Of a stretch of 64,000 nt of DNA, positions 13,758 to 36,908 are shown piece by piece. A program made the position numbers and the translations under genes. Numbering within the stretch: the first letter of the stretch is position 1; every line of letters starts with the position of its first letter. The stretch is from positions 355-64,354 of the forward strand of contig JAETPW010000008.1 of NCBI GenBank assembly GCA_021771025.1, written 5' to 3'. Under the pieces are notes generated by a model. The model ran no database searches and was not told the DNA's origin. It saw nothing but the letters and a program-made list of their open reading frames with translations. The DNA comes from Clostridiaceae bacterium (GTDB taxonomy: Bacteria; Bacillota; Clostridia; TANB77; CAG-508).

Positions 13758-13786
13758 AGGTCATTTTGAAGAAAATGACCTTTTTT
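13758..13786 (+). terminator. Intrinsic-terminator-like hairpin (10-bp stem, GAAG loop, T6)
   Basis: aggtcatttt-gaag-aaaatgacct is followed by tttttt on the plus strand. It overlaps the stop of the 13785-14090 ORF and lies upstream of the cas operon. Confidence 0.45.
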
Positions 13787-14090
13787 AAATTCTTTTGTTT
13801 CTTAATTGTCTTTCTATTCCTAATATATCTTTTATACTAAAAAAATACTGTTCCGCCTTTGTTAAAGGAATATTATTTTTATGTTTATATATAATCTTAT
13901 CTATAAATGTTAACATGTCAGACACTTGAAATAATCTTTTTTTAGTATGATCAAACTCAATTCTTCTTTCTATATTGTTTCTTGTTGCTAACACGTTATC
14001 TATTATTTTCCCTAAGGCTTCTTGTCCATTATCATAATAAACTACTACTCTTTCAAACTCATCTACGTAATCTGACAAATAAGTAAACAT
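13785..14090 (-). CDS. Hypothetical protein, possibly a 5'-truncated remnant
   Basis: 101-aa ORF. The frame stays open for a further ~53 codons upstream (to ~14250) without a canonical start. I recognised no motif. Confidence 0.35.
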   Translation of the reverse strand: MFTYLSDYVDEFERVVVYYDNGQEALGKIIDNVLATRNNIERRIEFDHTKKRLFQVSDMLTFIDKIIYKHKNNIPLTKAEQYFFSIKDILGIERQLRNKRI

Positions 14091-14261
14091 ATTAGTTATT
14101 TCTGAATTTAATTCTTTTACTAATTGGCTCTTTTGGTTCTTAAATTTCTTATCTACAATGATTGTATTAAGCTTTACATTTACTCTTTTTAAAAAATAAA
14201 AGATCGCCCAAAATATTTCTTTTCTTTGTTTTAGTGTAAATGACTATTTATATTCAATTTT

Positions 14262-14894
14262 TCATGGCTTACACTTACTACAAGCCCCATACCCACTCGA
14301 TTTAGCCGCTCCTAATGTAGTTTGTATACAACTCTTTTTCAAATACTGGCATCCACTTCGATGATATTTCCCTCCTGTTTTGGTAATATACACTACTTGT
14401 GAATTACTCTGATTATTGTTATTTGCTGTTGTTGTTTTTTGTTTGGTAGAAGTTGTTGTCGAACTTGATGATTGTTTAGTAGTTGATGTACTTGTTTTCC
14501 CTGAATTTTGACTTGCTCGTTTTTGTGCTTCTTGTTGTTTTTGTTCTTCCTCTTTCCTTTTTGCCTCTTCTGCTGCTACTCTTTGTTTTTCTTCTTCTTG
14601 TTTTTGTAATTCTTCTTGTTTTGCTTTTTCCTCTTCTGCTTTTTTTATTTCTTCTTGTTTGGCTTTTTCTTCTTCCGCCTTCTTTTGTTCCTCTTGTTTT
14701 ATTTTTTCTTCTGCTATTTGTTTTTCCTTTTCTTCATCTATTTGTTTCGTTTGTGTTGCTTCTTTTAAGTTTGCTTCTTTGGTTTGAACATCATTTGTTT
14801 GTCCTATTGATGAGAACATTAAAATAGCAATCACTAAGATTGTCCAAAACCACCACTTTTGATAAATTCGTTTTGTTTTTTTCTCTTTCCCCAT
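14262..14894 (-). CDS. Membrane-anchored Lys/Glu-rich repeat protein with a C-terminal Cys-rich (zinc-ribbon-like) domain
   Basis: The SD GGGGG precedes the internal ATG at 14894. It has one TM segment (WWFWTILVIAILMF), KAEEEKAKQEE tandem repeats and the C-terminus GKYHRSGCQYLKKSC...GYGACSKCKP. Confidence 0.6.
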   Translation of the reverse strand: MGKEKKTKRIYQKWWFWTILVIAILMFSSIGQTNDVQTKEANLKEATQTKQIDEEKEKQIAEEKIKQEEQKKAEEEKAKQEEIKKAEEEKAKQEELQKQEEEKQRVAAEEAKRKEEEQKQQEAQKRASQNSGKTSTSTTKQSSSSTTTSTKQKTTTANNNNQSNSQVVYITKTGGKYHRSGCQYLKKSCIQTTLGAAKSSGYGACSKCKP

Positions 14895-15135
14895 TTTCTT
14901 TTCCCCCTTTGTTTTCCCTTCTATTGTACTATCTTGTTTCGATAAAAGCAACTATTTTCTCTGTTTTTCCTTTTTATCGACTTCTTTCGATTTTTGTTTT
15001 TTTTCATATCTTATGGTATACTTGGTAGTTATTTGGTTTATTCTTTCTTCTTTTATGTGAAATCATTAATTTAATCGACATGAGAATACCCTCAAAAGCA
15101 ACTATTGATTAGTTCTTTTGAGGGTATTGGCTAAA

Positions 15136-15169
15136 TAGGGAAGAAAAGGGCGTCCCTTTTATTTCCCTA
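15136..15169. repeat. REP-like GC-rich palindrome, copy 2
   Basis: tagggaagaaaagggcgtcccttttatttcccta. Its right arm supplies the last three codons and the stop codon (I G K *) of the 15159-15698 gene. Confidence 0.85.
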
Positions 15170-15698
15170 TTCCATATCTCTCTGTTTCTGGGTCTTTCCA
15201 TAGGTTTACTTTGGGTGGATAATAGGTAAATACGATAAAACTAATAAAGAAAAATAGTAAAATGATTCCTGACAGTATTTTGGTTGTTATGGTAGATTCA
15301 TTTCCTAATTTCATGATTCGGTAGGCTACCCATTCTCCTAATAGAATACTGATGATAAAGGTTAGTATGTCAACTAGTAAAAAGTGGTATCCTAATATGC
15401 CGGTGTAAGTGTAATAAAATACGATAACAAAACAAATGGCTGTAAATATTCCTATTGTTTTTGCTTCTAAGTATTGGTTGCTTTCTTTTCTTATCCAGAT
15501 GTATTCGATGATTCCTGCTAATAGCATAGGGAAGAATATTAGTTTTAGGTGTTCCCATATGCTTTCATTTACTGCACTAAAGCTTCCTACGATGGCATTT
15601 TGCCCTGACCACTCATATGTGAAGTGTAATAGTGTTCCTAAAATAAGGCTAAATATAACTGCCCCTATTTGGGCTAGTATTAATTTATTTGTTTTCAT
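15159..15698 (-). CDS. Polytopic membrane protein (DUF6512-like?)
   Basis: 179 aa with about 5 hydrophobic segments and an NESIWEHLKLIFFP motif. The family assignment is from memory only. Confidence 0.55.
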   Translation of the reverse strand: MKTNKLILAQIGAVIFSLILGTLLHFTYEWSGQNAIVGSFSAVNESIWEHLKLIFFPMLLAGIIEYIWIRKESNQYLEAKTIGIFTAICFVIVFYYTYTGILGYHFLLVDILTFIISILLGEWVAYRIMKLGNESTITTKILSGIILLFFFISFIVFTYYPPKVNLWKDPETERYGIGK

Positions 15699-20203: not shown

Positions 20204-20957
20204 TTAACTCACCTCCCAGTAGAGTAACCACTTCTATGATTTTACTAAAGAATTCTTTTCTGGTGTTACTTCCTCGTTTTAGTTCATTGAAGATTTTTCC
20301 GTCTTTGATGAATAAAATTCGGCTGGCATAGCTTGCGGTAAAGGCATCATGGGTTACCATTAATATGGTAGCTCCTAAGGTTTTGTTTAAGTATTCAAAG
20401 TTTTCTAATAATTGTCTTGCTGATTTTGAATCTAAGGCTCCTGTTGGCTCGTCAGCCAATACTAATTTTGGATTGGTGATAATTGCTCTACTAGAGGCTA
20501 TACGTTGTTTTTGCCCTCCTGATATTTGGTAAGGGTATTTTTTGAGAATCTCTTTTATGCCTAATTTGTCAGCAATTTCCTCTACTCTTTTTTTGATTTC
20601 TTTGGGATTTACTTTTTGGATGGTTAAGGCTAATGCAATATTTTCGTAGCAGGTTAAAGTATCTAATAAATTAAAATCTTGGAAGATAAATCCTAATTCT
20701 TCTCTTCTGAATTGATTTAATTTGTTTCCTTTTAATTTGGTAATGTCTTGATTATTGATATAGATATTTCCCGCAGTTACTCTGTCTATGGTGGAAATAC
20801 AATTTAATAACGTTGTTTTTCCGCTTCCTGATGCTCCCATGATTCCCACAAATTCTCCACTTTCCACGGTGAAGGAAATGTTATCTATGGCTTTGGTAAT
20901 GTTTCCTTTGTTTCCATAGTATTTTTCAATTTGTTTCACTTCTAATATTTTTTCCAT
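20190..20957 (-). CDS. BceA-type ABC transporter ATP-binding protein
   Basis: It has Walker A (GASGSGKTT), the signature ISGGQKQR and Walker B (LADEPTGALD). The start is placed at MEKILEV after AGGAG. Confidence 0.88.
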   Translation of the reverse strand: MEKILEVKQIEKYYGNKGNITKAIDNISFTVESGEFVGIMGASGSGKTTLLNCISTIDRVTAGNIYINNQDITKLKGNKLNQFRREELGFIFQDFNLLDTLTCYENIALALTIQKVNPKEIKKRVEEIADKLGIKEILKKYPYQISGGQKQRIASSRAIITNPKLVLADEPTGALDSKSARQLLENFEYLNKTLGATILMVTHDAFTASYASRILFIKDGKIFNELKRGSNTRKEFFSKIIEVVTLLGGELNDVI

Positions 20958-21011
20958 GTTAAAAACTCCTTTTTTCTTTTTGGTTATCGATAAACCTTTA
21001 ACTTTATTTTT

Positions 21012-21076
21012 ATTATACACGGAGTTTTGTTTTAGTACAATTGATTTATCTTACTGATTTCTTACAGTTTTGTAAG
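21012..21076 (-). promoter_or_regulatory. Candidate Bce operon promoter with an upstream inverted-repeat box
   Basis: On the minus strand I read TTGTAC (21035-21040), a 17-nt spacer, then TATAAT (21012-21017). The palindrome CTTACA-N4-TGTAAG lies at 21061-21076, 20 nt upstream of the -35. It resembles the TNACA-N4-TGTAA boxes I recall for BceR-type regulators. Confidence 0.45.
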
Positions 21077-21088
21077 ATTGATCTTTTC

Positions 21089-21283
21089 CTATATCATGAT
21101 TTCATGGCTATTTTCTTTTAGCCATTGATCAATTTCTCGGTAGTTTGGGATAAATTTTTCTACTAGTTGGTAGAACTCTTTTTGGTGATTGGGATAAATC
21201 ATGTGGCAAAGTTCGTGTACGATGATGGCATCGATTTTATCTTTGGGTAGTACGATTAGTCGATTACTGAATGGCAGTTTTTA
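21089..21283 (-). pseudogene. Orphan 3' fragment of a DUF45/YgjP-like metallohydrolase gene
   Basis: 21090-21250 is 160/161 identical to 28159-28319, after which identity decays over ~33 nt. It encodes ...IDAIIVHELCHMIYPNHQKEFYQLVEKFIPNYREIDQWLKENSHEIMI* with no N-terminal part. Confidence 0.9.
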
Positions 21284-21426
21284 TCTTTGAGATATTACTT
21301 TTACGGTTTTATTTTTCCAATATTTTCCTATATATGCTTGACAAAAGAACGTAAAAGTATTAACATAATGTATATTATATGTATTTGCCACATATTTCAT
21401 AGTATGATAACACAAGGAGGTATAAC

Positions 21427-22689
21427 ATGAAAAAAATGTCTTACAAAGATAGTATTATAACAGCAAAACAATTTTCAGCAGTAGATATGAAAACCGGAAA
21501 AACAATATGGTTTTCACGTTCACGGTCTCCACAACATCTTTACCCTTTAACAGAGAAGGATTATTGTGAAGCAATTAAGTATGCAGTTCAACATGGAGTG
21601 GATCAAATTCCTATCCTTTCGGTGAGCGCAAAAGATTACCCTTATTGCGATTTCGATTGTAAGGATTGTTTGGCTTGCCCAAGCAGAAAATGGGCTATTA
21701 AAGATAATCATATCAAATATCCTATTATTCCTCTTAATAAATACAAAAAAATTTTAAAAGAAATTTCCGCTTACTCCACTAGACGTGGATTTAATTCTGT
21801 TAGATTTGAAGTTTGTGGAGAAGGAAATCCAGACTTATATAAGGATAGGATTAAAATGTTAGAATATGCCAATCAAAACTGTAATATGGGAATTGTTTAT
21901 GTGAGTACTGGCAGTCAAATATCTGATGATTTATTAGATTGTTTGGTAAATAATGTTGCCTTTATTAGAATTAGTTTTCCAGGAATTTCATCAGAAGCTT
22001 ACCAATTATATGCTAATCAAAAATCTCGAGAACATAATTTCACTTTTGATGATGCGATTCGTTTGTTAGATAAACTCTGCAATGCAAGAGCAAAATTTGG
22101 AAGAGAAGATTCTTTATTAATTGGTACCAGAACATGTATTAGACCACTAAATTCTGGTTACTACGATAAGTTCATTAGTACTATTGCTACAATTGGTGTA
22201 GATGTATTTCAAGGCGTAAAAGTTCTTATTCCCGATTTTGAAAGTGTTAAAGATGAGATTGTTTCTCAAGAAGTTATCGAAGAGCTGGTAGCCCTTAAAG
22301 AAACCTCTTATTCTTATGGACTTAAAGATTATCAAATTCCTAATGACTTGAATACTATTTATAATAATAGGGCGATGGTAGAAAGAGAAAAACCCACAAA
22401 ATGTTGGAGTTCTCTTATTTCTCCTCCATTATATGGTACGAATCTTATGTGCTGTGTACTTTGGGATAGAATTACAGATCTCAATTACCACTATGGCATA
22501 TTGGAGGGAAAAGAATATGAACTCGAAGAGTTAATGCATGGTGAAAGAGCAAAATTTATTATGGAGAATTGTCCTAAAAATTGTACAGAATGTTGTTCTT
22601 TCAAAGACAATAGTTTTATGGAAAGTTTGTGGCGCGTATTGAGAATTCATGAAGACTTGAATTCTGTGAAATTTATCACAAATTACTAA
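21427..22689 (+). CDS. Radical SAM enzyme with a C-terminal SPASM/twitch-like Cys motif
   Basis: The SD AAGGAGG is present. It has CX3CX2C (C74, C78, C81: CDFDCKDC), a GEGNP SAM-binding motif, C326-X10-G-X4-C342 and C382-X3-C-X2-CC. Confidence 0.8.
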   Translation: MKKMSYKDSIITAKQFSAVDMKTGKTIWFSRSRSPQHLYPLTEKDYCEAIKYAVQHGVDQIPILSVSAKDYPYCDFDCKDCLACPSRKWAIKDNHIKYPIIPLNKYKKILKEISAYSTRRGFNSVRFEVCGEGNPDLYKDRIKMLEYANQNCNMGIVYVSTGSQISDDLLDCLVNNVAFIRISFPGISSEAYQLYANQKSREHNFTFDDAIRLLDKLCNARAKFGREDSLLIGTRTCIRPLNSGYYDKFISTIATIGVDVFQGVKVLIPDFESVKDEIVSQEVIEELVALKETSYSYGLKDYQIPNDLNTIYNNRAMVEREKPTKCWSSLISPPLYGTNLMCCVLWDRITDLNYHYGILEGKEYELEELMHGERAKFIMENCPKNCTECCSFKDNSFMESLWRVLRIHEDLNSVKFITNY

Positions 22690-22709
22690 TCTAATCAATA
22701 CGTATAATC

Positions 22710-22736
22710 GAGTATGTTCTAGTATAGAACATACTC
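22710..22736. terminator. Bidirectional hairpin between the convergent radical SAM and HIT-like genes
   Basis: gagtatgttcta-gta-tagaacatactc is a 12-bp perfect stem. Confidence 0.6.
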
Positions 22737-22741
22737 TTCTC

Positions 22742-23221
22742 TTATTTAAAATTTTCTTTTATTATATCAATACAGTTTAATACTTCCTCTCTGTAATGAC
22801 TACTTACATTGAGAATGTTTTTAGCGTAGATCCCCATTTGGCTAAAATCAGAATGAAATTGATATGTCCATTCGTGCTTTGGTATAAAATTAATATGTAA
22901 ATATCCTGAACTTGATTCATCTTGATAAATCATTACTTTTTTAAATCCAGATTTATGCATTGATTCTAACAATCTACTTGATAAATCAATCAATTTGTTC
23001 CTTTCTGCTTCTGTTAAATCTGTTATTGTGTGGATAGGCTTATTTATTGCTAAAATCATATATCCTTTTATAGGAATTTCAGGATCTGTTGCTATATTAA
23101 AAAGTCCATCATCATATACATAACTCCCTGGAAAGTTTGTTATTTCATGGTTAGCAATAGCATAACTCAAATTCCCTTCAAATTCCATAAATTCCCCTAA
23201 CCAATTCAAAATTTTGTTCAT
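22742..23221 (-). CDS. HIT-superfamily-like protein with a degenerate histidine triad
   Basis: It has a HIT-like core (IPIKGYMILAINKPIHTITDLTEAE...), but the triad position reads YLHINFIPK, so one His is retained. It is a paralogue of the C-terminal half of 26397-27143. Confidence 0.55.
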   Translation of the reverse strand: MNKILNWLGEFMEFEGNLSYAIANHEITNFPGSYVYDDGLFNIATDPEIPIKGYMILAINKPIHTITDLTEAERNKLIDLSSRLLESMHKSGFKKVMIYQDESSSGYLHINFIPKHEWTYQFHSDFSQMGIYAKNILNVSSHYREEVLNCIDIIKENFK

Positions 23222-23764
23222 CTATTTAACTCCTTTTCTATTTTGTATAAAATCTTTTAAACAATTTAATTCAAACTCAAATTCATATCTTGTAAATGTG
23301 GTATTTTTTTTATTATTTTCCCCAATAGAATGTATAATATATTTGTTACAATTATTTAATATACCCCTATATATAGGATTTTGTATTGCAGATATATATA
23401 ATTCATCTACTAATAATTTGTATTCCTCGCTATCTCTTTCTATCTCTTTTCCTTGCCAATAAATTATTCCTTTTTCTTTCCAGTCATAATTTGTGGCAGC
23501 CTTTACATGAACTGCTTGTGTACCATAATATGAAAATATATAGTTCTGTACCTTTTTATCCTTAAATTTAATGCCTTGAAAAAAGTTTTCAATACTTCTC
23601 AACTTCTTTCTTCGGAACTTAAAATCATAAGGAAATAAATTCGATAACATTTGAGCAAAATCACCTTTATTTTTATACCCAACATCAACCCAATTTTCAG
23701 TTTCACTAATTCTATTACCGTTCACTATCCTGTAGTATTTCATTATTACAATATATACATCCAT
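23222..23764 (-). CDS. NADAR (YbiA/DUF1768)-like protein
   Basis: LSNLFPYDFKFRRKKLRSIENFFQGIKFKD ... DWKEKG resembles the NADAR signature (LSNF..F....SxEhxFQaxKF). The stop abuts the next start (TAGATG). Whether the start is M1 or M8 is uncertain. Confidence 0.45.
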   Translation of the reverse strand: MDVYIVIMKYYRIVNGNRISETENWVDVGYKNKGDFAQMLSNLFPYDFKFRRKKLRSIENFFQGIKFKDKKVQNYIFSYYGTQAVHVKAATNYDWKEKGIIYWQGKEIERDSEEYKLLVDELYISAIQNPIYRGILNNCNKYIIHSIGENNKKNTTFTRYEFEFELNCLKDFIQNRKGVK

Positions 23765-23841
23765 CCTTTTGAGTTAATTCTTTTTGTATGAATTTATAAT
23801 TAGTCTTAAACTCTAAAAAATCCTTCAATTCTCTTTTTATT

Positions 23842-25485
23842 TTATTCATCTCTACCTCTATCCTGAAATGGTATATCCCTAATTATTTCTTTAATCTGTT
23901 CTTTTAGTTTTATACATAAAAATGCTGAACTTTTTTTTATTTTTTCACCAGTCATATCATATAAATTGATACCTGAATCTTTTGAATATTTCTCTGCTAG
24001 TTGCAATAATACTTGAATGTCCTGAGTCTCAGCTTGTCTAAGTCCTTCTTGTTTCATCATTTTAACATAAGCATCTCCATTTTTTTCTTTTAAGGCATTA
24101 ATAGAATCCCTCATAATCCAATATCCCGGATCATCTAAAATTGTTAAAAAATCAACTGTTTTGACATCAAAAGTAGAATGATCCAGTTTTCCATGTTTTA
24201 CTTGATTATAGAAATCCCAATTATATTTAATTGCACCATATTTACAAGACCTACCCCTTTTTTCTAGTTCTTGCCTAAGAGTATTCATTGTATTGCAAGA
24301 AGCAACATTATCATCAATAAGTACAATCTCATTTTCTGTAGTATTCCATAAGTTATTGCTACACAAGTCTTCAAAATTTTTTTCATCAGAGATATTTCTT
24401 AATTTTTCATCTTTAGAATATAAGCTAAATAATATATTGGTATAATCAAAACCATACATACTTTTTAATATTGGTCCTACAAAAATTGAGCCTAGTCCTG
24501 GGGTTAGTATGTGTTTTTGTTTGCTAAATTTCAAGTTTGAACAGAATATATATAAAATTTGTTTATTATCCATTTCAATATGTCTTTCCAAAATTTTACT
24601 ATCACCTTCTGGCAAATCATATAATGGTTTTTGTAATGGTTCATTGTTAAATAATCTTACTAAATTTTCGCAATCTTCTTCAAAGCATTTTTGTGCAGCA
24701 ACAACATTATTTTCTTTCTTCTCTATCATTCTTTTTAGCTCTTCAAAATAGACTTTGCCAGATGCATTAGATAAGTATTCAAGTATTACAAAGTTTCTTT
24801 TTGAATCATCTTCAGTTAAAATTCTTCCTAAATTCTTTCTTTCACAAGCAAGCTCGGAATATGACTTTGCTTTATAATATGATGCATTTCTTGATAAATA
24901 CTTTCCATTGCTTAATGGCTCTACTAAATTTTCAACTCCAGTATTATCTTCTAAATCAATTAAACCATTTGAATCAAATTCATATAGATGAACTTTTTGA
25001 TTTTCTTTTATAATTTCCTCTGTTTTGTATAAAACATCTCTTCCCTCATCTTGATAAAAAACTGTATATTTACAATTTTTTTTATAATCTTTAATTATTA
25101 AATTCCCGTTTTCTATTTTATATGAAATATTTCTATCTTTAATTTTAGTATATATTACACCATCTCGAATTGAAATATTGTTATTTATAATGTCTTCTAA
25201 CGTTTGCCCTGTACTTAATAAGTATTTTTCAAATTTGCTAAACTGCTTTAAAAATTCATGATTATGAAGTGTATTTCTGTCTGCACCTTTACTTTTTAAA
25301 TATTTCAATAGTTTTACAGAATATTGTGGTTTTACAAAAATATTATTATTTTCAACAATTTTTTTCCATTTTTCATCATCATATTCTTGTGAGTCAGGAG
25401 CTAATGAAATAATATAATTTTTTTTATCAAATTTTATACATATACCTCTTTTTCTATCTTCTTTTTCTTTAAATATTTTTCTCAA
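23842..25485 (-). CDS. 547-aa protein with an unknown N-terminal region and a C-terminal phosphoribosyltransferase-like motif
   Basis: ILTPGLGSIFVGPIL ... NEIVLIDDNVASCNTMNTL resembles a PRPP-binding loop (hydrophobic run-DD-x-x-x-x-x-T). The start is TTG. I did not recognise the N-terminal ~320 aa. Confidence 0.4.
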   Translation of the reverse strand: MRKIFKEKEDRKRGICIKFDKKNYIISLAPDSQEYDDEKWKKIVENNNIFVKPQYSVKLLKYLKSKGADRNTLHNHEFLKQFSKFEKYLLSTGQTLEDIINNNISIRDGVIYTKIKDRNISYKIENGNLIIKDYKKNCKYTVFYQDEGRDVLYKTEEIIKENQKVHLYEFDSNGLIDLEDNTGVENLVEPLSNGKYLSRNASYYKAKSYSELACERKNLGRILTEDDSKRNFVILEYLSNASGKVYFEELKRMIEKKENNVVAAQKCFEEDCENLVRLFNNEPLQKPLYDLPEGDSKILERHIEMDNKQILYIFCSNLKFSKQKHILTPGLGSIFVGPILKSMYGFDYTNILFSLYSKDEKLRNISDEKNFEDLCSNNLWNTTENEIVLIDDNVASCNTMNTLRQELEKRGRSCKYGAIKYNWDFYNQVKHGKLDHSTFDVKTVDFLTILDDPGYWIMRDSINALKEKNGDAYVKMMKQEGLRQAETQDIQVLLQLAEKYSKDSGINLYDMTGEKIKKSSAFLCIKLKEQIKEIIRDIPFQDRGRDE

Positions 25486-25511
25486 ATCATTATTCTTTAA
25501 ATCTTTTTCAT

Positions 25512-26336
25512 CTACAAAAAAATTGTAAACACTAATTTTTTTTGTTCTTCTTTTGTAAATACACTTTGTATCACATTTTTAGTAAACATAAAAAGATCTA
25601 CAATTCCATTTATATTTTTTCTATTATTTAGGTATTTGCATATAAATTTTAATTTTAAATCAGTTCTTTGATTATCATTAATTCCTTCTCCATTATATCT
25701 TGTTCCTAACAGTTTAATTGCAGTTTTTTGATCTTTTTGTAATATTTCTTCAGTATTTTCTAATTTTATTTTTAGTAAATTCAAGAAATCATCTAGATAT
25801 ATACCATCACTCTTATAACCAATACTATCATCGATTTGTTCTAATTCTTTATCATTTATAAAACTAATATTTTTTACTTTTCCAGCATAAAGTTTATCAT
25901 AATACTTTTTTGAAGCAAAATTATTTGTTCTCAATCCTACTTGCATTTCTACTAAATCTGTTAACGGATCAACAATATATGAATTACCTTTTTTAGTTTT
26001 TATCATCAAATCAATATGTTTAAATTCATCATTAAAAGGTGATATTAACTCAGAATCTATATCAAAATTCTTTTTTAATAGTTCTTTAATTATATTGCAA
26101 TAACTTTTACAAACAATATTAAAGTCTTGTATATTACTTAAATCAATTTTCTTGTTATATATATCATTTCTAGCTTTTACATTCTCTTTATCTAGAAAAA
26201 ATGTATAATCTCGATAAAAGATCTTAGAAGTCTGTTTTATGACATATCTTACAATTGCCATTTCATGTATGTCTCCACTAAATTTTTGTATTTTATTCAT
26301 ATTTACATTTTCTTTGCAAAATTCAAATAAATTCAT
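25512..26336 (-). CDS. Hypothetical protein, possibly with a Cys-His-Asp (transglutaminase/papain-like) core
   Basis: 274 aa. NIVCKSYCNIIKELL ... FKHIDLMIKT ... NSYIVDPL fits a C...H...D spacing. This is a weak, motif-only call. Confidence 0.25.
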   Translation of the reverse strand: MNLFEFCKENVNMNKIQKFSGDIHEMAIVRYVIKQTSKIFYRDYTFFLDKENVKARNDIYNKKIDLSNIQDFNIVCKSYCNIIKELLKKNFDIDSELISPFNDEFKHIDLMIKTKKGNSYIVDPLTDLVEMQVGLRTNNFASKKYYDKLYAGKVKNISFINDKELEQIDDSIGYKSDGIYLDDFLNLLKIKLENTEEILQKDQKTAIKLLGTRYNGEGINDNQRTDLKLKFICKYLNNRKNINGIVDLFMFTKNVIQSVFTKEEQKKLVFTIFL

Positions 26337-26396
26337 GTTATCTATATCCTTTTTTATAAAGTCTAAGGGAGAATATAGTATCCTCCCTTTTTTTAG

Positions 26397-27143
26397 CTAA
26401 TTAGACTCAAAGAAACTTCTTACTTTTTCTGCAAATAATAGACATTCCTTTTTTTGTTTATCTGTCATATTTTTCTTTGCATACATTGTAATTTTCTTAA
26501 GATTTTTCCCTCTTCCAAATTGGAACATCCAATCATCAGAAGGAATAATCCATCTCCTATAGTGCTCTGAAAAACCATCTTCAAACAGAAGAATATTTTT
26601 GGCTCCTAAATATTCTAATGCTAGTTTTACTCTATTGGTAATATCTTCTATTTGAATTCTTTCACCTCGTGTAAGTTCGGTTGTAGTAGATATATGTTTT
26701 TTTATTCCTATAACAATAAATCCAATAATTGGAACTTCTGGGTCTATCGTTACATTAATAAAATTATCTTCATATAGATATCCACCAGGTAAATTTGTAA
26801 TTGTATGATTTCCTATGGCACAACTTTTACAGCCTTCAAAAACCATCTCTTCGTTTAAGAAGTTAGTAACAGCTACTTCTTCTCCTTTTTGATTTAAGTA
26901 GCATTTTTTTCCTTCCTTCTCAACAACTCCCAGTCTATTTTGGAAATCATCAGCTTTATCATATCTTATTTCGCATATTTGTTTTCCTTTTTGATTGATA
27001 TATCCCCATTTATTTTTTATCCTAACTGCTGCAACATTTTCGCAAAAATCCCGTACTTCATCATAGATAAAATCACAAATAGGTTCATCATTCTCATTTA
27101 CAAATGCCCATTTCCCTGATATTTCTTTTTTCCTGTATAACAT
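26397..27143 (-). CDS. WG-repeat domain fused to a degenerate HIT-like domain
   Basis: The N-terminus has KWAF/KWGYINQKG repeats (WG-containing repeat type). The C-terminus has CKSCAI plus a HIT-like core, but the triad position reads HYRRWIIPS. A strong SD (AAGGAGG) is present. Confidence 0.5.
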   Translation of the reverse strand: MLYRKKEISGKWAFVNENDEPICDFIYDEVRDFCENVAAVRIKNKWGYINQKGKQICEIRYDKADDFQNRLGVVEKEGKKCYLNQKGEEVAVTNFLNEEMVFEGCKSCAIGNHTITNLPGGYLYEDNFINVTIDPEVPIIGFIVIGIKKHISTTTELTRGERIQIEDITNRVKLALEYLGAKNILLFEDGFSEHYRRWIIPSDDWMFQFGRGKNLKKITMYAKKNMTDKQKKECLLFAEKVRSFFESN

Positions 27144-27237
27144 AGATTGACCTCCTTATGGTACTTTGAAAGATAAAATAAGAGTTAATTAGCTAAAAAT
27201 AGTAAAACTATGCACTTATTATACTACGTATATCGTT

Positions 27238-28020
27238 TTATGTCAATTTCCTAAAATTTAATTTCTTAATCATTTTTTCTCCAATAATTTCTATTTCATC
27301 TGGTTTCATATGATGTTTCATATTTTTTATTTCCATAAGTTCTATTTCTGGTCTATCTTTTATAAATTTATATGTATCTTTAATTGGTGCAGTATCATCT
27401 AAAGAACCTTGAATAATAAGTATTTTCCTTTTTTCATGATAAGTATTATATAAATCATTTTTTACTAAATCTTCGTAAAAAGAATAGGGAACTTCTATTT
27501 TTCCATTATGTCCAGATTTAGCTTTTTTATCGTTTCTATATTGTGTAAATGGTTCTTTCAATAAACTATTTATGAAAATATCTTTCATGTTAAATGCAGG
27601 AGATCTTAATATTATATTTTCATAATCTGACTTATCTCCTATTAGTTTGTTTAATAATATATATGCTCCAAAACTAATGGCAAAAAAAGAGATTCTTATA
27701 TTGGAGCTATATTTATTTTTTATATAATCAATAACATTATTAATATAAGAAATACATACATCTACTGTCAATTTATCTGTTCCTTGAACACTATCAATAT
27801 GCCCAGGAAAATCAAAAGAGATCGATTCTATACCATACTGTAATAATTTTTCTGCAACTATTTTGATTGAATTACTGCTTTTCCCACTGCAAAACCCATG
27901 ACAAAATATAAAAATTTGATTATTCATTTTTTTTCCATCATCATAAAATATCTTACCTTTTATCATACATTTTTCTTTTTTATTATAAATATCTATATTT
28001 TTTTCCATTCTTGCTATCAT
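27238..28020 (-). CDS. Alpha/beta-fold hydrolase
   Basis: It has IFCHGFCSG (oxyanion region), the nucleophile elbow AISFGA, IIQGSLDDTAP (acid) and MKHHM (His). Confidence 0.65.
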   Translation of the reverse strand: MIARMEKNIDIYNKKEKCMIKGKIFYDDGKKMNNQIFIFCHGFCSGKSSNSIKIVAEKLLQYGIESISFDFPGHIDSVQGTDKLTVDVCISYINNVIDYIKNKYSSNIRISFFAISFGAYILLNKLIGDKSDYENIILRSPAFNMKDIFINSLLKEPFTQYRNDKKAKSGHNGKIEVPYSFYEDLVKNDLYNTYHEKRKILIIQGSLDDTAPIKDTYKFIKDRPEIELMEIKNMKHHMKPDEIEIIGEKMIKKLNFRKLT

Positions 28021-28157
28021 TCCTTCCTTGCTATATTTTCAAAGGCATAAATTATTTTTTCTGCCTTAGTTCCTACTATTAATAAAGCTAAAAAATTTAC
28101 ATGTAATTCCATGTTTGCCTTAGTACTTGATTTTAATTACTTTTATTCTCTTTTTTG

Positions 28158-28913
28158 TTATATCATGATTTCATGGCTATTTTCTTTTAGCCATTGATCA
28201 ATTTCTCGGTAGTTTGGGATAAATTTTTCTACTAGATGGTAGAACTCTTTTTGGTGATTGGGATAAATCATGTGGCAAAGTTCGTGTACGATGATGGCAT
28301 CGATTTTATCTTTGGGTAGCATGATTAATCGATTACTAAATTGGAGTGTTTTTTTCTTGGGGATACAACTACCAAATTTACTAGTAGCGTCTCTTACCTG
28401 AAATGACTGATAGGGTATTTGCGTTTTTTTGCTCCAATAAGGTACTCTAATTATTAACCATTCTTTTGTTTTTCTTTGCCATAGTTTTTTTATGTTTTTG
28501 TCAATTTGTCGTTTTCTTTCTTCTTGGGATATGGTAGAAAAAATTAGAGGTAGTGATAGTTTTATGGTTTTTTGGGTTTCCTGAATTTCAATTTTCAGGC
28601 TATTTTTAGGGAAGTCTTCTACTAGAATTCGGTACGTTTCCCCTTGATATAACATTTTTTCTCCTGTATACCAATGTTTTATGGTTTGATTTTCTTTTTG
28701 GTTGATTTTCTCGTATTGCTCACTTATTGTTTCCTTATTTTGTTCGATGATTTTTAGTAATTCTTTTTGTTTCATTCTTGCTGGTTTACTGATGTTTAGT
28801 GTATTTCCTTTGAAGTACATTTTTAGTGTGCAAGAGTTTTGGTAGTTTCTTACGATGATGGGAATCTGTTTTCCTTTTATTGGTAGATAATATTTAGCCT
28901 CTCCCATGTTCAT
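28158..28913 (-). CDS. DUF45 / YgjP-like zinc metallohydrolase (full-length copy)
   Basis: It has the HELCH (HExxH) motif and the C-terminus NHQKEFYHLVEKFIPNYREIDQWLKEN. I prefer the start at MNMGEAKYY after AGGAG. Confidence 0.75.
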   Translation of the reverse strand: MNMGEAKYYLPIKGKQIPIIVRNYQNSCTLKMYFKGNTLNISKPARMKQKELLKIIEQNKETISEQYEKINQKENQTIKHWYTGEKMLYQGETYRILVEDFPKNSLKIEIQETQKTIKLSLPLIFSTISQEERKRQIDKNIKKLWQRKTKEWLIIRVPYWSKKTQIPYQSFQVRDATSKFGSCIPKKKTLQFSNRLIMLPKDKIDAIIVHELCHMIYPNHQKEFYHLVEKFIPNYREIDQWLKENSHEIMI

Positions 28914-28968
28914 TTTCTCCTTTTTCTCTTTTTTCTTTTTCTCTTTTTTCATTAAAAGCATTTAAAAT

Positions 28969-29140: not shown

Positions 29141-30070
29141 TTAAAAACTTCTTGAACTTCCTCCTCCACCAGAAGAACCTCCGCCTCCGTGGAATCCGCC
29201 GTCCTCCGCCTGAGAAGCCTCCTCCAGAGAATCCGCCTCCACCGGAAACCTCCTCCTCCGTAGAAGCCTCCGTCCGCCAAACCCGATGAATCCTCCAAAG
29301 TTCACTAAGATTAGGTTAACGACGAAGATGACGATTCCTGTTATTATGCTTTGCGTTAAGAAATAGGTTAGTCCTGCTATAGCAATTAGATAAATCATCT
29401 TACCTATTTTACCTTTTTTCTTTCCTAATCGAGCAATAAGAGAAGAAAATACTATGCTGACAATAAATATACTCGAAAAGGCAGATGTGCCAGCTGTTTG
29501 TTTCGTTGGTTTTACTTGTTCTGCTCCTTCAATTGTTACTTGGTACTCGCCCGCAATTTCTTGTAATAGGGCATTAAATCCCTTTTTTAGTCCGTCATTA
29601 TAGTTATCGTTTTTTAGATCGGGTACCATGTATTCGTCTTGAATTCTTCCTGTTTTTCCATCGGTTAGTCTTCCTTCTAGTCCATAACCAACTTCAATTC
29701 TAAGTTTTCTTTCCCCTGTTGAACATAGGATGAGAACTCCATTGTTTTTTCCTTCTTGCCCAATTTCATAGGCACGGAATACTTCATTAGCATATTCTTC
29801 TACCGTTTTTCCTTCTAGGCTTTTAACGGTTACTACTGCGATTTGTGCTTGTGTTTTTTCTTCTAGTTTTTGGGCCATTTGAATCATGTATTGCTTTGTT
29901 TCTTGCTTTAATACTCCTGCTTGGTCGTTTACGTACTTCTCACTAGTCGATGGAGCAGGAAAAGCTTGGGCTGTAGATGTTAGAAAAAAAATTGATAATA
30001 TACCCATTATGACAATGGCACATAAAATTCCTCGTAAAAATTTTGTTTTTGTCCTAATCAAATTGGACAT
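29141..30070 (-). CDS. TPM-domain (YgcG-like) membrane protein with a Gly-rich tail
   Basis: It has a signal/TM segment, a TPM core (VNDQAGVL...AVVTV...GVLIL...RIEVGYGLEG), two TM segments and a Gly-rich C-terminus. The start is at MSNLIRT after AGGAGG. 29201-29272 appears to be read out of frame (see findings). Confidence 0.8.
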   Translation of the reverse strand: MSNLIRTKTKFLRGILCAIVIMGILSIFFLTSTAQAFPAPSTSEKYVNDQAGVLKQETKQYMIQMAQKLEEKTQAQIAVVTVKSLEGKTVEEYANEVFRAYEIGQEGKNNGVLILCSTGERKLRIEVGYGLEGRLTDGKTGRIQDEYMVPDLKNDNYNDGLKKGFNALLQEIAGEYQVTIEGAEQVKPTKQTAGTSAFSSIFIVSIVFSSLIARLGKKKGKIGKMIYLIAIAGLTYFLTQSIITGIVIFVVNLILVNFGGFIGFGGRRLLRRRRFPVEADSLEEASQAEDGGFHGGGGSSGGGGSSRSF

Positions 30071-30620
30071 TTGGAACCTCCTTGCTTCCTTCTGAAGCTT
30101 CAAAATAATCTTTTTGTTCATAGCCAAACATGCCTGCAATTAAATTTGTTGGGAATTTTTTTACTTTTACGTTGTAAGTATTAACGGCATCATTGTAATC
30201 TTTTCTGGCTACTGCTATTCTATTTTCTGTTCCTTCTAATTCATCAGCTAATTGAGCAAAGTTTTGTGATGATTTTAAATCTGGATAATTTTCAACCACA
30301 ATCATTAAACGATTTAATGCACTGGTTAATTCTCCATCTGCCTCTGACTTTTCAGCAACCGTTCCTGCTCCTGCTAATTTTGCTCTTGCTTCAGTTACTG
30401 AATCAATAACCTCTTTTTCTTGGCTAGCATATCCTTTTACGGTATTGACTAAATTTGGAATTAAATCTGCTCTTCTTTGTAACATCGTATCAATCGTGGC
30501 AAATTTGTTATCCACTTCCTCTGATTTAGAGACGATTCCATTGTAACTAATTCCTAACATTCCAATAATAAGCACAATAATTACTGCTATTACTAGAATG
30601 ATGATAGTAGATTTTTTCAT
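30054..30620 (-). CDS. lemA: LemA family protein
   Basis: 188 aa with an N-terminal TM segment and LemA-like sequence throughout (LQRRADLIPNLVNTVKGYA..E). It overlaps the TPM start, which is the classic LemA-TPM pairing. Confidence 0.85.
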   Translation of the reverse strand: MKKSTIIILVIAVIIVLIIGMLGISYNGIVSKSEEVDNKFATIDTMLQRRADLIPNLVNTVKGYASQEKEVIDSVTEARAKLAGAGTVAEKSEADGELTSALNRLMIVVENYPDLKSSQNFAQLADELEGTENRIAVARKDYNDAVNTYNVKVKKFPTNLIAGMFGYEQKDYFEASEGSKEVPNVQFD

Positions 30621-33888: not shown

Positions 33889-35196
33889 TTATTTTTTTAG
33901 TGCTCTAGCTATTGCTTTAGATAATAACGGCGGTACTGCATTTCCTACTTGAGTATATTGAGCGGTTCTGGGGCCTTCAAACAAATAGTTATCAGGAAAG
34001 CTTTGAATTCTGGCTGCTTCTCTTACGGTTAATGCTCTACATTGTCGTATGTCTGGATGTATGTTGTAGTGTCCGTCTTTACTAATGTGTGCTACAATTG
34101 TATGCGGTATTTCATACATTCCATGTACTTTAAATCTATCTGAAAATTGTTTCTCATTTTTATGTGTTTTTAAGTTTGGTGGTAATTCGTCATAGTATAG
34201 TTTTTGGTTTTTGTTTGCCTTTTCTATAGCTAGTTGATAAATTTCTTTATCTCTATCATTTAATTTTCTAGCTTTATGATTTACTATCCCTATGCTATCT
34301 TTTCTTAAGTATTCTTCATATTTGGATTGTGGCTTAGTTTTGTATTTTACCAATTTTCGATCATGACCTTCCCCTTCTTTTAATTTATTTAAATCCAAAA
34401 TCGCATTTTTTGTGTTTATTTCTTCGTTAAATTTTTCAGCATATTTAGTAAAATCGGGATATTCATAATCTAAATCTTTTCTTACCCCGAATAATATTAC
34501 TCTTTTTCTTGTTTGATATACACTATAGTTTACTGCCTCTTGTAAATTTTCTTTTCTTTCTTCTTTGTTCCCCACTTTAAGTTCATAACCAATTTTACTA
34601 AATTCTATAGATATCTCATCAAATATTTTTCCATCTTGGGCAGAAAATATTCCTGGTACATTTTCAAAAATAAACATTTTGGGTTTATACTTTTTAACCA
34701 TATCTCTATAGTAGTAGAATAAATAATTTCTTTCATCTTCTCTTACTTTTTCTTTCATTCTACTTCTTCCAATAATTGAGTATGCTTGACATGGTGGGCC
34801 TCCGATGATTAGGTCTATTTTTTTTTCGTTAAAAAATTCCATTGATAAATTGATCAACTTGATAATTTCTTTTATATCAGTTGCCTTTTGATCCTTTTTT
34901 GTGTTTCCAAACTTTTTATTTAATACTGTTTTATTTAATATTTCTTTCAATTCTGGATATTTTCCAAAAACTATTTCTCGGTTTTTCTCAATATCATGAT
35001 AGTGATTAGCGGATAATAAATATTTGTTATACATTTCTAGATCATTTTTTTCCCTTAGATAGTAATACATTATTCTTGTTTTCAATGTTTCACAAGCCCA
35101 ATATTCTTTTTCGATATGTGCTATAAATTTATATCCTTCACTTAAAAAACCTTCTGTTAGTCCTCCTGCTCCTGAAAATAAATCAATTACTACCAT
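33889..35196 (-). CDS. DNA (cytosine-5) methyltransferase
   Basis: It has motif I (DLFSGAGG), motif IV (GGPPCQAYS), motif VI (ENVPG) and motif X (QVGNAVPP). Confidence 0.92.
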   Translation of the reverse strand: MVVIDLFSGAGGLTEGFLSEGYKFIAHIEKEYWACETLKTRIMYYYLREKNDLEMYNKYLLSANHYHDIEKNREIVFGKYPELKEILNKTVLNKKFGNTKKDQKATDIKEIIKLINLSMEFFNEKKIDLIIGGPPCQAYSIIGRSRMKEKVREDERNYLFYYYRDMVKKYKPKMFIFENVPGIFSAQDGKIFDEISIEFSKIGYELKVGNKEERKENLQEAVNYSVYQTRKRVILFGVRKDLDYEYPDFTKYAEKFNEEINTKNAILDLNKLKEGEGHDRKLVKYKTKPQSKYEEYLRKDSIGIVNHKARKLNDRDKEIYQLAIEKANKNQKLYYDELPPNLKTHKNEKQFSDRFKVHGMYEIPHTIVAHISKDGHYNIHPDIRQCRALTVREAARIQSFPDNYLFEGPRTAQYTQVGNAVPPLLSKAIARALKK

Positions 35197-35213
35197 TTTT
35201 CTCTCCTATTTTT

Positions 35214-36908
35214 TTATTTACTACATAAAATATACAGTAATAATTTTGCCCTTGATATAGCTACATAATTTAATATGTTTGTGTTTATATTATCCTCTTT
35301 GTTATCTACATCGCATAGTATGACGATTTTTGCTTCTAACCCTTTAAAACTATGTATTGTTGAAAATGTTATGCAGTCTCCTCTTTCTTTTTCTTTATAC
35401 TCTATGATATTTTTTACTTTTGCTATTTCACTTAAAAAATTATTTCCTTTAAATACACTATCTTCATAACTATGTTTTGATAATATGGTAATATCACTGT
35501 CTTGTATGCCATTCATTTTTAGTCTTTTTACTATTTTTTTTATTTCTCTTCTTTGTGAAGCTTCATCATTATAGGTTATGATTTCTACTTCTTCTCCTAT
35601 TGCTTCGTTATTTATACTTTGCATAATACCTGTTATTTTTTGATTTGTAATTGAAATTTGCTTGGTATTTCTGCAATTTTTAGTTAATTTTGTTATACTT
35701 GGTCTTATCTCTTCTAATAATAATTCAAATAACTCATTAAATTCAGTATTGTAGATATTTTGATTTTCATCTAAAGCCATATACCAATTTCCATGTTTAA
35801 TTCCTTTTTCTAAAATTTTATCTAGACATTCTATATACTGCATTTTAATTAGATCTTGTGCTTCATCTATTACCATTGCTTCATAGGGTTCTATATTTGT
35901 ATTGAGGAAGTCTTTTGGTAATGTACTCTCGAAGAATTCTTTTGTATTTTGTGCTCTATACTCAGTATTTTCTTTTTTAACTTGTTCTAACAGATATGCA
36001 TGCAAATTGATTATTTTTATGTTTCTTTTTATTTCTTCATTTTCTTCTTTTAATCTATTATTTAAATGTTTGCTTAGTGTTTTATTATAACAGATAAATA
36101 TTACTTTTTTTCCTAATGCAGCTAATTTTAACGTTTGCTCGTATAGTAATACCGTTTTTCCTGTTCCTCCTGTCCCTTTAATAACTACTCTTTTATTATC
36201 TTCCATCGATTCTAAGATTTGTTTTTGTTCTTCAGTTAATTTGATTAATATTTTTTCAGTTTCCTTTAAGTCTGATGATAGGCTTTGTGAATAACCAAAA
36301 TCACCTCTTATTATGGTTAGTATTTTACTTATATTTGAATGAGTTAGTAATATTTTTGTTTTATGATACTTTTCAAAAAATTTGCTTTTATGATAATCAA
36401 AGATTTCATCAATTATGGTTTTTATTTCTTTATTTTCTAATTTAGGTCTATCTATTGTTATTTTTTCTTCTACATCTATCCCCTGCCAATTAAATTCTAT
36501 ATCGGGAAACGCTACTGCATAGGCAAATTGTATTGTTCCTATATTGATGGTATCATTTTTTATCTTTTTTTTCATATATTCTATTAAGGAATACATATTT
36601 TTACTTACTTGTTCATATGGTCCTTCTATTTTTTTGTATTGTTTTTCTTGTCTATCAGTAAATATCCATATTCCTTCTCTTCTTTCGACTCTCCCCCCTT
36701 TAACTTCAATACATAAAATTCCTTTGGGGCATAGGATGACAAAATCAATTTCTCCTTCTACTTTTTCTATATGTTCTAACATATTTAATGAGTGCATTAC
36801 GATATACTCATCAGGCAGATTTTTTAATCGTTCAAATATTTTTTTCTCCCCTGTGCTACTGTCTTTTGCTATTTGATTTGGTATCATTTTAGCCATATTT
36901 CCTATCAC
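35214..36908 (-). CDS. NERD-domain nuclease fused to an SF1 (UvrD/AAA_30-like) helicase
   Basis: It has an N-terminal NERD-like region (GEIDFVILCPKGILCIEVKGG), Walker A (GTGGTGKT), VIDEAQD and a C-terminal UvrD_C-like region (TIHSFKGLEAKIVIL...ISRAK). The stop lies 17 nt from the methyltransferase start. Confidence 0.7.
   Translation of the reverse strand: MIGNMAKMIPNQIAKDSSTGEKKIFERLKNLPDEYIVMHSLNMLEHIEKVEGEIDFVILCPKGILCIEVKGGRVERREGIWIFTDRQEKQYKKIEGPYEQVSKNMYSLIEYMKKKIKNDTINIGTIQFAYAVAFPDIEFNWQGIDVEEKITIDRPKLENKEIKTIIDEIFDYHKSKFFEKYHKTKILLTHSNISKILTIIRGDFGYSQSLSSDLKETEKILIKLTEEQKQILESMEDNKRVVIKGTGGTGKTVLLYEQTLKLAALGKKVIFICYNKTLSKHLNNRLKEENEEIKRNIKIINLHAYLLEQVKKENTEYRAQNTKEFFESTLPKDFLNTNIEPYEAMVIDEAQDLIKMQYIECLDKILEKGIKHGNWYMALDENQNIYNTEFNELFELLLEEIRPSITKLTKNCRNTKQISITNQKITGIMQSINNEAIGEEVEIITYNDEASQRREIKKIVKRLKMNGIQDSDITILSKHSYEDSVFKGNNFLSEIAKVKNIIEYKEKERGDCITFSTIHSFKGLEAKIVILCDVDNKEDNINTNILNYVAISRAKLLLYILCSK

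Follow-up and report, generated by a model that had tools for sequence, protein, structure and literature searches.

The gene cassette considered here occupies about 7 kb of a 64,000-nt stretch of a contig from a Clostridiaceae bacterium (JAETPW010000008.1, positions 355 to 64,354; this whole stretch is called the window, and all coordinates refer to it). The described systems that come closest to it contain proteins with a phosphoribosyltransferase (PRTase) fold, a NADAR domain or a radical S-adenosylmethionine (SAM) core. DS-32, a validated anti-phage pair from the DefensePredictor work, consists of an E. coli PRTase (WP_000097610, DS-32A) and a NADAR protein (WP_032260665, DS-32B). NADARs are also the antitoxins to DarT1 and YarT in the DarT1-NADAR and YarT-YbiA pairs, and gp30.3 of phage T4 is active in vitro (PMC11125620). 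ShosT is a PRTase-like toxin whose toxicity requires binding of phosphoribosyl pyrophosphate (PRPP) and which disturbs purine metabolism, and another PRTase-like protein is the defence effector of Retron-Eco11 (type III-A3). Finally, the prokaryotic viperins (pVips) make antiviral nucleotide analogues.

The cassette consists of six genes and matches no named system. Its core is a PRTase and NADAR pair of known architecture, accompanied by an accessory module that is substantial, conserved and undescribed. Searches with PADLOC, PHROGs and NCBIfam returned no system-level match for its proteins: PADLOC gave only a sub-threshold pVip match to the core of the radical SAM enzyme (rSAM) and none for the other proteins, the remaining matches being of a generic hydrolase kind, and no account of this gene combination was found in the literature searched. 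The first-pass annotation, made from the letters alone, had described a seven-gene cassette belonging to no named system and combining functions in a way that matched none known. The absence of a named system was borne out, and as a whole the combination is indeed without match, but the count of genes was one too high and the core is not without precedent, since DS-32 is a published architectural analogue.

The likeness to DS-32 lies in the adjacent, overlapping and co-oriented PRTase-fold and NADAR genes, in that order, which is also the order in the class A cassette. It is a likeness of architecture only, with no sequence homology detected. DS-32A resembles the PRTase of type III retrons, DS-32B is not of the gp30.3 type and the system has only two genes, whereas the PRTase of the cassette is fused to a 446-aa orphan N-terminal module (N-module) and stands with the rSAM enzyme, two HIT-like proteins and a hydrolase. 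In DarT1-NADAR and YarT-YbiA the NADAR adjoins the enzyme whose product it reverses, and T4 gp30.3 belongs to the same Pfam family as the cassette NADAR. Unlike DarT and YarT, however, the partner of the cassette NADAR has a PRTase fold and not that of an ADP-ribosyltransferase, which makes ADP-ribosyl-guanine an unlikely substrate. No ADP-ribosyltransferase domain was found in the cassette by Pfam or PADLOC, the neighbours of the NADAR being the PRTase-like and HIT-like genes, and nothing in the cassette shows the ADP-ribose or nicotinamide adenine dinucleotide (NAD) chemistry that had been read into it earlier. ShosTA and Retron-Eco11 share with it a PRTase-fold protein, which in those defence systems is the effector; no DprA-like ShosA, reverse transcriptase or noncoding RNA was found in the cassette (Pfam, open reading frames (ORFs) and Rfam).

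The rSAM enzyme has in common with pVips the radical SAM core, but differs in a C-terminal half with four invariant cysteines and in having relatives linked to GT2 glycosyltransferases. Viperin is the best NCBIfam match for 29 of 30 members of the rSAM family, with scores near 30 bits where the cutoff is 180. The window protein scores 29.9 bits with NF038283 (pVip) over residues 73-219 only, and the best E-value across the family is 4e-12. Membership of the viperins was ruled out on score and coverage, and the viperin flavour given to the cassette by the first-pass annotation was thus overstated.

Genes and domains of the cassette

The genes and domains of the cassette are the following, with the rSAM gene converging on a minus-strand operon formed by the others:

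21427..22689, plus strand: rSAM enzyme, 420 aa (Pfam PF04055, E 6e-4; CX3CX2C motif)
22742..23221, minus strand: HIT-like protein, 159 aa (Pfam HIT, E 0.044, below the cutoff)
23222..23719, minus strand: NADAR catalytic core (Pfam PF08010, 3.4e-24), shifted by +1 from the frame of its N-terminal extension
23715..23849, minus strand: ORF of the NADAR N-terminal extension, 44 codons, its ATG overlapping the stop of the 831-aa gene (ATGAATAA)
23845..24996, minus strand: C-module of the 831-aa protein, residues ~447-831, predicted type I PRTase fold with helical flanks
24283-24318, minus strand: PRPP-loop motif LIDDNVASCNTM, inside the C-module
24997..26336, minus strand: N-module of the 831-aa protein, residues 1 to ~446, an α/β domain followed by a β-rich domain
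26397..27143, minus strand: WG-HIT protein, 248 aa, with WG repeats in the N-terminal half (PF14903, 2.7e-14) and a HIT-like C-terminal half
27238..28020, minus strand: α/β-hydrolase, 260 aa (Hydrolase_4, 1.5e-8; Abhydrolase_1, 1.7e-6)

All seven ORFs annotated at first are present in the six-frame ORF list of the window, at the same coordinates. Two of them, a 274-aa ORF (25512-26336, minus strand) that had been taken for a separate Cys/His/Asp protein and a 547-aa ORF (23842-25485, minus strand), are parts of a single 831-aa gene, the former being the N-terminal domain of the PRTase protein. Nearly all homologues of the 547-aa ORF are 830-831 aa long and open with the sequence of the 274-aa ORF. 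Where the window reads GAAGAACAAAAAAAATTAGT, the intact allele L138 reads GAAGAACAACAAAAAATTAGT, meaning that one nucleotide was lost in the window; this deletion created a run of eight adenines (A8, 25536-25543), at which the gene is split. L138, seen in 18 samples, is 98.8% identical to the window over the whole 7,070 nt. The split allele is shared by contigs L001 and L002 and was seen in at least 11 samples, its other genes being intact, and no Shine-Dalgarno motif lies upstream of the TTG at 25485 with which the 547-aa ORF starts. Other damaged alleles of the 831-aa gene have frameshift truncations near residue 466 (P0067, P0070) or an internal deletion of residues 436-645 (P0064).

The C-module is predicted by modelling to adopt the type I PRTase fold, and its PRPP loop is intact, so that the PRTase-like motif noticed at first is borne out at the level of the fold. 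AlphaFold2, run with a 48-sequence alignment, gave a predicted local distance difference test score (pLDDT) of 89.4 and a predicted template modelling score of 0.82. The top 50 Foldseek matches in the PDB were almost all of the type I PRTase fold (APRT, HGPRT, OPRT, XPRT, PurR), most with a probability of about 1.0; the length of the query, 831 residues, accounts for their weak E-values (2e-3 to 8e-2). With APRT, HGPRT, OPRT and PurR the C-module shares the fold and the PRPP-binding loop motif, which has the type I layout of a hydrophobic run, DD and S/T-G-x-T and reads LIDDNVASCNTM in the window and LLDDNVGTGQTM in stand-alone relatives. It differs from the type I PRTases in its long helical flanks and in lacking a PDB match at the sequence level, no usable one being found for the 547-aa ORF or for the family profile A1. 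The PRPP loop and a TPGxGS loop are invariant, and the invariant residues include P613, G614 and G616, D675, D676, N677 and T683, and Y705, N706 and W707. Pfam PF00156 (Pribosyltran) did not match the window protein or P0001; distant PRTase-like relatives reach it below threshold, with 17-21 bits against a cutoff of 26.3. The PRTase-like family is very rare, with 125 clusters at E ≤ 1e-3 among 1.84 billion representatives.

The N-module is a confidently modelled domain without detectable structural relative: its AlphaFold2 model, built from P0067, has a pLDDT of 89.8, and Foldseek found no significant match in the PDB or BFVD. Across the family alignment C76 and H107 never vary and D123 hardly does, and in the model C76 stands at the N-terminus of a helix with H107 and D123 by the next strands. 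This pattern suggests a papain- or transglutaminase-like site, without any identity being asserted. The weak Foldseek matches include the papain-fold C39 domain of PCAT1, NAT, AvrPphB and UCHL5, all of them non-significant and with a probability of at most 0.14.

The NADAR identification made at first was upheld by Pfam (PF08010, 85.6 bits against a gathering cutoff of 36) and by alignment with T4 gp30.3, in which the LSN, ExFxQ, WxG, RxS and QN motifs and the phage-type His145 are kept. The residues invariant between the cassette protein, T4 gp30.3 and a Vibrio phage homologue are L40, S41, N42, E59, F61, Q63, W103, G105, R110, S112, Q128, N129 and H145, a histidine in the last strand being the phage-type feature by which the gp30.3 subfamily of NADARs is defined (PMC11125620). 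The best PDB match is E. coli YbiA (E 0.037). With the catalytic positions conserved, the protein is plausibly an active enzyme, as judged from these alignments.

The NADAR ORF as first listed (23222-23764, minus strand) has its start set wrongly, the real ATG being at 23849. One extra C at 23720 breaks the reading frame, and because of it the extension ORF closes with CGG, a codon rare in the window ORFs (2 of 9,911 codons), and a stop. A full-length ORF of 203-213 aa is found in L007, L008, L013-L016 and L018, and the window, L138, L003, L009-L012, L017 and L022 share the extra C at one and the same site (GAN-C-GGA/T-AAT), their ORF ending after 44-45 codons. The stop comes directly after CGG or one codon later, and the core resumes in the +1 frame on an abundant GGA or GGT codon. 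These interrupted genes represent at least 5 diverged alleles, in all of which the 44 upstream codons are open and conserved, and neighbour-joining trees of either flank do not group them into one clade. A Shine-Dalgarno-like stimulator upstream of the shift is not conserved among the alleles. The interruption may reflect programmed +1 frameshifting, a split gene that is tolerated, or a lesion spread by recombination. The 44-aa ORF was also considered as the precursor of a ribosomally synthesised and post-translationally modified peptide and rejected, as it is the N-terminal extension of the NADAR, and the only small conserved ORF of the cassette.

Whatever the family does, the copy in the window may be an inactive, decaying remnant, which we regard as quite possible though doubtful. 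The 1-nt deletion relative to a nearly identical intact allele, the missing Shine-Dalgarno motif before the second part, the frameshift in the NADAR gene and the absence of an integrase among the ORFs between the direct repeats that bound the cassette all point to decay. The split allele, on the other hand, circulates in those 11 or more samples with its companion genes unharmed, slippage could occur on the A8 run, the NADAR frameshift is common to diverged alleles with an open upstream ORF and is perhaps tolerated or programmed, and the promoter is intact.

The remaining proteins form the accessory set. In the rSAM family alignment C74, C78 and C81 of the CX3CX2C motif are invariant, as are C326, C343, C386 and C389, and these four extra cysteines suggest an auxiliary cluster. 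PF04055 is precomputed for many rSAM homologues, SPASM-type maturase models are matched by some family members and an AslB-type name is attached to one homologue; no usable PDB match was found by sequence with the enzyme or with the family profile A5. The HIT-like calls of the first-pass annotation are weak: the matches behind them are concordant, but the Pfam one falls short of its cutoff. The 159-aa protein reaches 14.9 bits with PF01230 (cutoff 21.5), its best PDB profile match is a HIT hydrolase (6d6j, E 0.68), and its motif YLHINFIP keeps the middle histidine of the HIT motif HxHxHxx, at the position of the nucleophile. It is paralogous to the C-terminal half of the WG-repeat protein (35-38% identity), which is probably non-catalytic because an arginine replaces that histidine (HYRRWIIP). 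The WG-HIT family is confined to this cassette family and comprises 68 clusters. The hydrolase, encoded upstream of an internal promoter, has a motif resembling that of a serine nucleophile (AISFG).

Distribution, mobility and separable modules

A scan of one genome per GTDB species gave 39 loci, almost all in genomes titled as uncultured gut Clostridia or Clostridium assembled from metagenomes, with two titled Alphaproteobacteria and one just 'bacterium'. As far as their contigs reach, the cassette is present in 13 of these loci (L007-L018, L022), of which L010, L012, L015, L017 and L022 are cut or degraded, and in the metagenome contigs L003-L006; identity to the window proteins ranges from 32 to 87%. 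In L018 the order is rearranged to WG-HIT, rSAM, hydrolase, N-module, C-module and NADAR, and the 831-aa protein is encoded as two ORFs of 431 and 380 aa. The co-occurrence of these families elsewhere, which the first-pass annotation had made the touchstone of its proposal, was therefore found, the six genes forming a block in many genomes, even after rearrangement.

The boundaries of the block are constant and the flanks vary between genomes. The commonest flank families are large serine recombinases, DUF6076, TnpV, RepA_N, DUF6664, relaxase/MobC/NikA and tyrosine integrases. Because the flanks differ and often hold integrases, relaxases and plasmid replication genes, the cassette is regarded as cargo of mobile elements: it is horizontally mobile, and appears as the sole or main cargo of small integrative or mobilisable elements. 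A minority of flanks carry defence genes recognised by PADLOC, among them PDC-S01, MADS components and a CARF_ADA-type adenosine deaminase match. In L003 (4397-8289), as in L004 and L006, a mobilisable element encodes, immediately ahead of the cassette, an 843-aa protein with an adenosine deaminase domain, followed by a DUF6076 protein; a flank protein of this set gave the CARF_ADA match (4.9e-9). The C-terminal region of the 843-aa protein looks SLOG/LOG-like by eye, and its gene may be a separate conflict gene.

A phage or plasmid origin of the 831-aa protein was considered and ruled out: tblastn gave no match in 50,697 phage records (INPHARED) or in PLSDB, and one edge match was found in IMG/VR. 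Contigs of about 7 kb were likewise rejected as circular elements. Their ends fall inside the ygjP-derived repeat (see below) and show no terminal overlap, and they are accordingly taken as assembly breaks.

In the other 26 species of the scan only a protein of ~380-450 aa is found, corresponding to residues 447-820 of the 831-aa protein. A gp30.3-like gene lies directly beside this PRTase-like gene in 25 of the 26, and no other family is consistently linked to the stand-alone pair in these species. The rSAM family also extends beyond the cassette, and in all contexts that were examined rSAM was accompanied by the N-module, whether the PRTase was present or not. The 831-aa protein is therefore a fusion, as its halves travel separately with different partners, the N-module with rSAM, WG-HIT and hydrolase and the C-module with the NADAR. 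In the manner of a Rosetta stone, this fusion is evidence that the two modules work jointly.

Two sorts of sister cluster illustrate the contexts in which the accessory genes occur. The L048 cluster (L048:7001-13014; rSAM 58% identical) contains rSAM, α/β-hydrolase, a GT2 glycosyltransferase, WG-HIT (66%), an N-module (55% and 48%) that is frameshifted (L048:11009-12350) and a HAD protein, without PRTase-like domain or NADAR. In L049-51 (45% identity) a 681-aa N-module-like protein is found with DUF402, polysaccharide pyruvyl transferase, FrhB-like, GT2 and rSAM proteins, and in L049 (655-8338) an NrtR-like regulator is encoded nearby. In the sister clusters the GT2 protein occupies the place of the C-module.

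Some distant relatives of the PRTase-like module are fused to an APH-like kinase, a HisA/HisF-like TIM barrel or both (L057-L067), with an overlapping gene for a HAD phosphatase (for example L061:4174-6390 and 6383-7021); genes for a GFO/IDH/MocA oxidoreductase, a DegT aminotransferase and a GNAT protein lie next to it in L057.

Proposed function and alternative explanations

By analogy with the systems described above, we tentatively favour the reading that the cassette is mobile cargo acting within the cell on nucleotides or phosphoribosyl compounds, as a conflict system of the anti-phage, abortive infection or toxin-antidote kind, while holding its chances to be somewhat short of even. We infer every catalytic step, the toxin/antidote logic and any anti-phage role. 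In such a system, the C-module of the 831-aa protein would transfer phosphoribose from PRPP to a base-like acceptor, or drain PRPP or purines as ShosT does. The NADAR would hydrolyse the resulting N-ribosyl bond and so keep the activity harmless until needed, and the N-module, rSAM, two HIT-like proteins and hydrolase would either modify the nucleotide product further or control the effector.

A conflict role is favoured because of the analogues (DS-32, ShosT, Retron-Eco11 and the NADAR antitoxins), the carriage as mobile cargo and the repeated inactivation of alleles, the recurrent frameshifts, truncations and internal deletion being what is expected of a costly or toxic gene. The co-occurrence of all six genes in 13 species-level loci and in metagenome contigs, the rearranged L018 included, supports the cassette as a unit, and the adjacency of PRTase and NADAR in 25 of 26 species marks these two as the minimal unit. 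In class A cassettes the overlap of the NADAR start with the stop of the 831-aa gene points to translational coupling, and the PRTase fold with its PRPP motif and the catalytically plausible NADAR count on the same side. The insertion at ygjP between CRISPR-Cas and a restriction-type island also counts for the conflict reading, as does the absence of genes for export and regulation: no transporter, regulator or precursor gene was found in the block (ORF list and Pfam).

Several observations weigh against a conflict role. Alignment of profile A1 with DS-32A by hhalign gave a probability of 0.06 and an E-value of 0.79, the best BLASTP E-value between the cassette NADAR and DS-32B was 21, with only superfamily membership in common, and the PADLOC models for ShosT and retron PRTases did not match the window protein, marginal PRPP-loop cross-matches to ShosT and retron proteins (E ~1e-3) being confined to distant relatives. 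Only some flanks hold defence genes recognised by PADLOC, and the window copy is frameshifted in both central genes. Many stand-alone pairs lie amid housekeeping genes, in core-genome settings. The L048 and L049-51 sister clusters look like glycoconjugate biosynthesis, and such glycosyltransferase and polysaccharide-type settings of relatives of the accessory genes weaken a purely immune reading. Lastly, the fusions of kinase, PRTase-like domain and HisA/HisF with a coupled HAD phosphatase are the signature of an undescribed small-molecule pathway.

If the conflict reading is nevertheless true, the PRTase and NADAR logic of DS-32 would extend to an unrelated and much larger architecture in abundant uncultured Clostridia of the human and animal gut, and phosphoribosyl chemistry would become linked with rSAM, with HIT-like proteins and with an orphan Cys/His/Asp domain, making the cassette a candidate source of a new modified nucleotide. 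A more specific version, which we consider rather improbable, is a new immune system of several enzymes that produces an antiviral or toxic nucleotide of its own. From PRPP the PRTase would form an unusual N-ribosyl nucleotide, to be converted into an antimetabolite by the distantly viperin-like rSAM, the active HIT-like protein and the hydrolase, with the phage-type NADAR as safety valve, its dosage perhaps set through a +1 ribosomal frameshift at CGG. Antiviral nucleotide analogues would then be reached by a second route that does not depend on viperin and that includes a fold-orphan N-domain in a regulatory or catalytic role.

A close rival to the conflict reading, though on balance an unlikely one, is a biosynthetic or salvage pathway for a ribosylated or nucleotide-like small molecule or for a cell-surface glycoconjugate. 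In such a pathway the PRTase-like protein would take the sugar-transferase role of GT2. The product would be tailored by rSAM and the hydrolase, by the N-module through transfer of acyl or amide groups and by the HIT-like proteins through nucleotidyl or phosphoramidate chemistry, and the NADAR would recycle or edit N-ribosyl intermediates, as YbiA does for riboflavin intermediates. It draws on the GT2, HAD and pyruvyl transferase genes of the sister clusters, on the kinase and HisA/HisF-like fusions with their coupled HAD phosphatase and neighbouring sugar aminotransferase and oxidoreductase genes, on the core-genome settings of stand-alone pairs and on the N-glycosidase role described for YbiA-type proteins in the literature. 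It fits less well with a block devoid of transporter, regulator and acceptor-specific gene, travelling as the sole or main cargo of small elements. Moreover, a PRTase beside an enzyme that undoes N-ribosylation would be a futile pair in a simple pathway, the NADAR is of the phage gp30.3 type and the alleles are often inactivated. Even if the cassette turned out to be metabolic, it would hold a very rare PRTase family, a domain without structural relative and a NADAR gene with a recurrent +1 frameshift site.

Far less probable is a role in counter-defence or in NAD/ADP-ribose housekeeping, in which the NADAR and HIT-like proteins would destroy nucleotide-derived immune signals or ADP-ribose adducts and the PRTase-like protein would rebuild a depleted nucleotide pool, much as phages reconstitute NAD+. 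NADARs of the gp30.3 type are typical of T4-like phages (777 phage records match), viral NADARs have been proposed in the literature to degrade signals derived from ADP-ribose, phage NAD+ reconstitution uses PRPP-dependent enzymes, and the cassette is carried on integrative and mobilisable elements. The 831-aa protein, however, has no homologue in the phage records or PLSDB beyond its single IMG/VR match, its PRTase fold is of type I and not NAMPT-like, and such a role would leave rSAM and the N-module without function and has no component linked to NAD.

Least probable of all, by a small degree, is protein or peptide maturation, with rSAM modifying the N-module (for example at Cys76) or a small peptide and the N-domain and hydrolase acting as processing peptidases: the constant company of rSAM and N-module, the four extra invariant cysteines with the SPASM- and AslB-type matches and the papain-fold hints speak for it, but those hints are non-significant, neither precursor peptide nor exporter is present, the only small conserved ORF being the NADAR extension, and the best NCBIfam match of the rSAM family is viperin, a nucleotide-modifying enzyme.

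Boundaries, transcription signals and surroundings

The cassette had been called accessory and repeat-bounded, and this was confirmed: a repeat search and pairwise alignment identified 199-nt direct repeats (21084-21282 and 28153-28351) at 95% identity and a spacing of 7,069 nt. The right copy belongs to a gene for a YgjP-like metallopeptidase (28158-28961, minus strand; Pfam 7.8e-44), the apparent integration target. The whole looks like an insertion of about 7 kb into the 3' end of ygjP that brought along a replacement gene end. The exact YgjP protein, with which an empty site was sought, is not on record. The repeats and the transcription signals are located as follows:

21084..21282, no strand: left repeat copy, a fragment duplicated from the ygjP-like gene (its 3' end), at one edge of the 7,069-bp insertion
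21338..21366, plus strand: promoter-like site TTGACA-17-TAACAT upstream of the rSAM gene, 10/12 matches, from a consensus scan only
22710..22736, no strand: hairpin with a 12-bp stem from the terminator scan, between the convergent rSAM and HIT-like genes
27246-27218, minus strand: σ70 promoter TTGACA-17-TATAAT, 12/12 matches, where the hydrolase gene ends, 75 nt before the start of WG-HIT
28153..28351, no strand: right repeat copy, the 3' end of the intact ygjP-like gene

The exact σ70 consensus is present at the same place in L001, L002, L007-L009, L011-L014, L016 and the divergent L018, with TACAAT in L003. Between it and the WG-HIT gene lie a conserved leader and an AAGGAGG ribosome-binding site. 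The leader (27144-27246, minus strand, in the window; L007:9088-9196 and equivalents) contains the block TAGTTTTACTAT...TTTAGCTAATTAGCT, and in L007, L008 and L012 a 12-nt perfect palindrome, AGCTAATTAGCT. The hairpin at 22710-22736 is a candidate bidirectional terminator. No Rfam family, riboswitches included, was found in 20900-28400.

Two details of the first-pass annotation concern the ends of the operon. The TAG-ATG junction reported at its end is present in the sequence, at 23221/23222. The palindrome TTACATGTAA noted in its upstream region does occur at 28097-28106, but as an operator it was rejected, since it is at chance level (0.24 expected per window, found in 24 of 100 shuffles) and is not conserved: upstream of the hydrolase gene it was not found in relatives beyond the near-identical contig L002.

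The reported siting between a CRISPR locus and a defence island also held, with type I-B cas genes upstream and a methylase, NERD-helicase, DUF1998, helicase and GmrSD island downstream. The CRISPR array (3732-4554) has a period of ~65-67 nt and the repeat CTTTAAATTCTAATATATTTATATAATAAC, and adjoins the type I-B-like cas region (5286-15698), which encodes a Cas3 HD-helicase (7027-9213) and a Cas8b-type CXXC protein (10949-12811). In the minus-strand island (33889-45902) the domains of a C5 DNA methylase, a NERD-helicase, an MZB/DUF1998 protein, a 1,020-aa helicase, a UvrD_C protein and GmrSD were confirmed. Between the ygjP-like gene and this island, a 332-aa ORF (29141-30139, minus strand) has a repetitive C-terminus rich in Gly, Ser and Phe, corresponding DNA repeats at 29162-29271 and a 77-aa ORF overlapping it in another frame.

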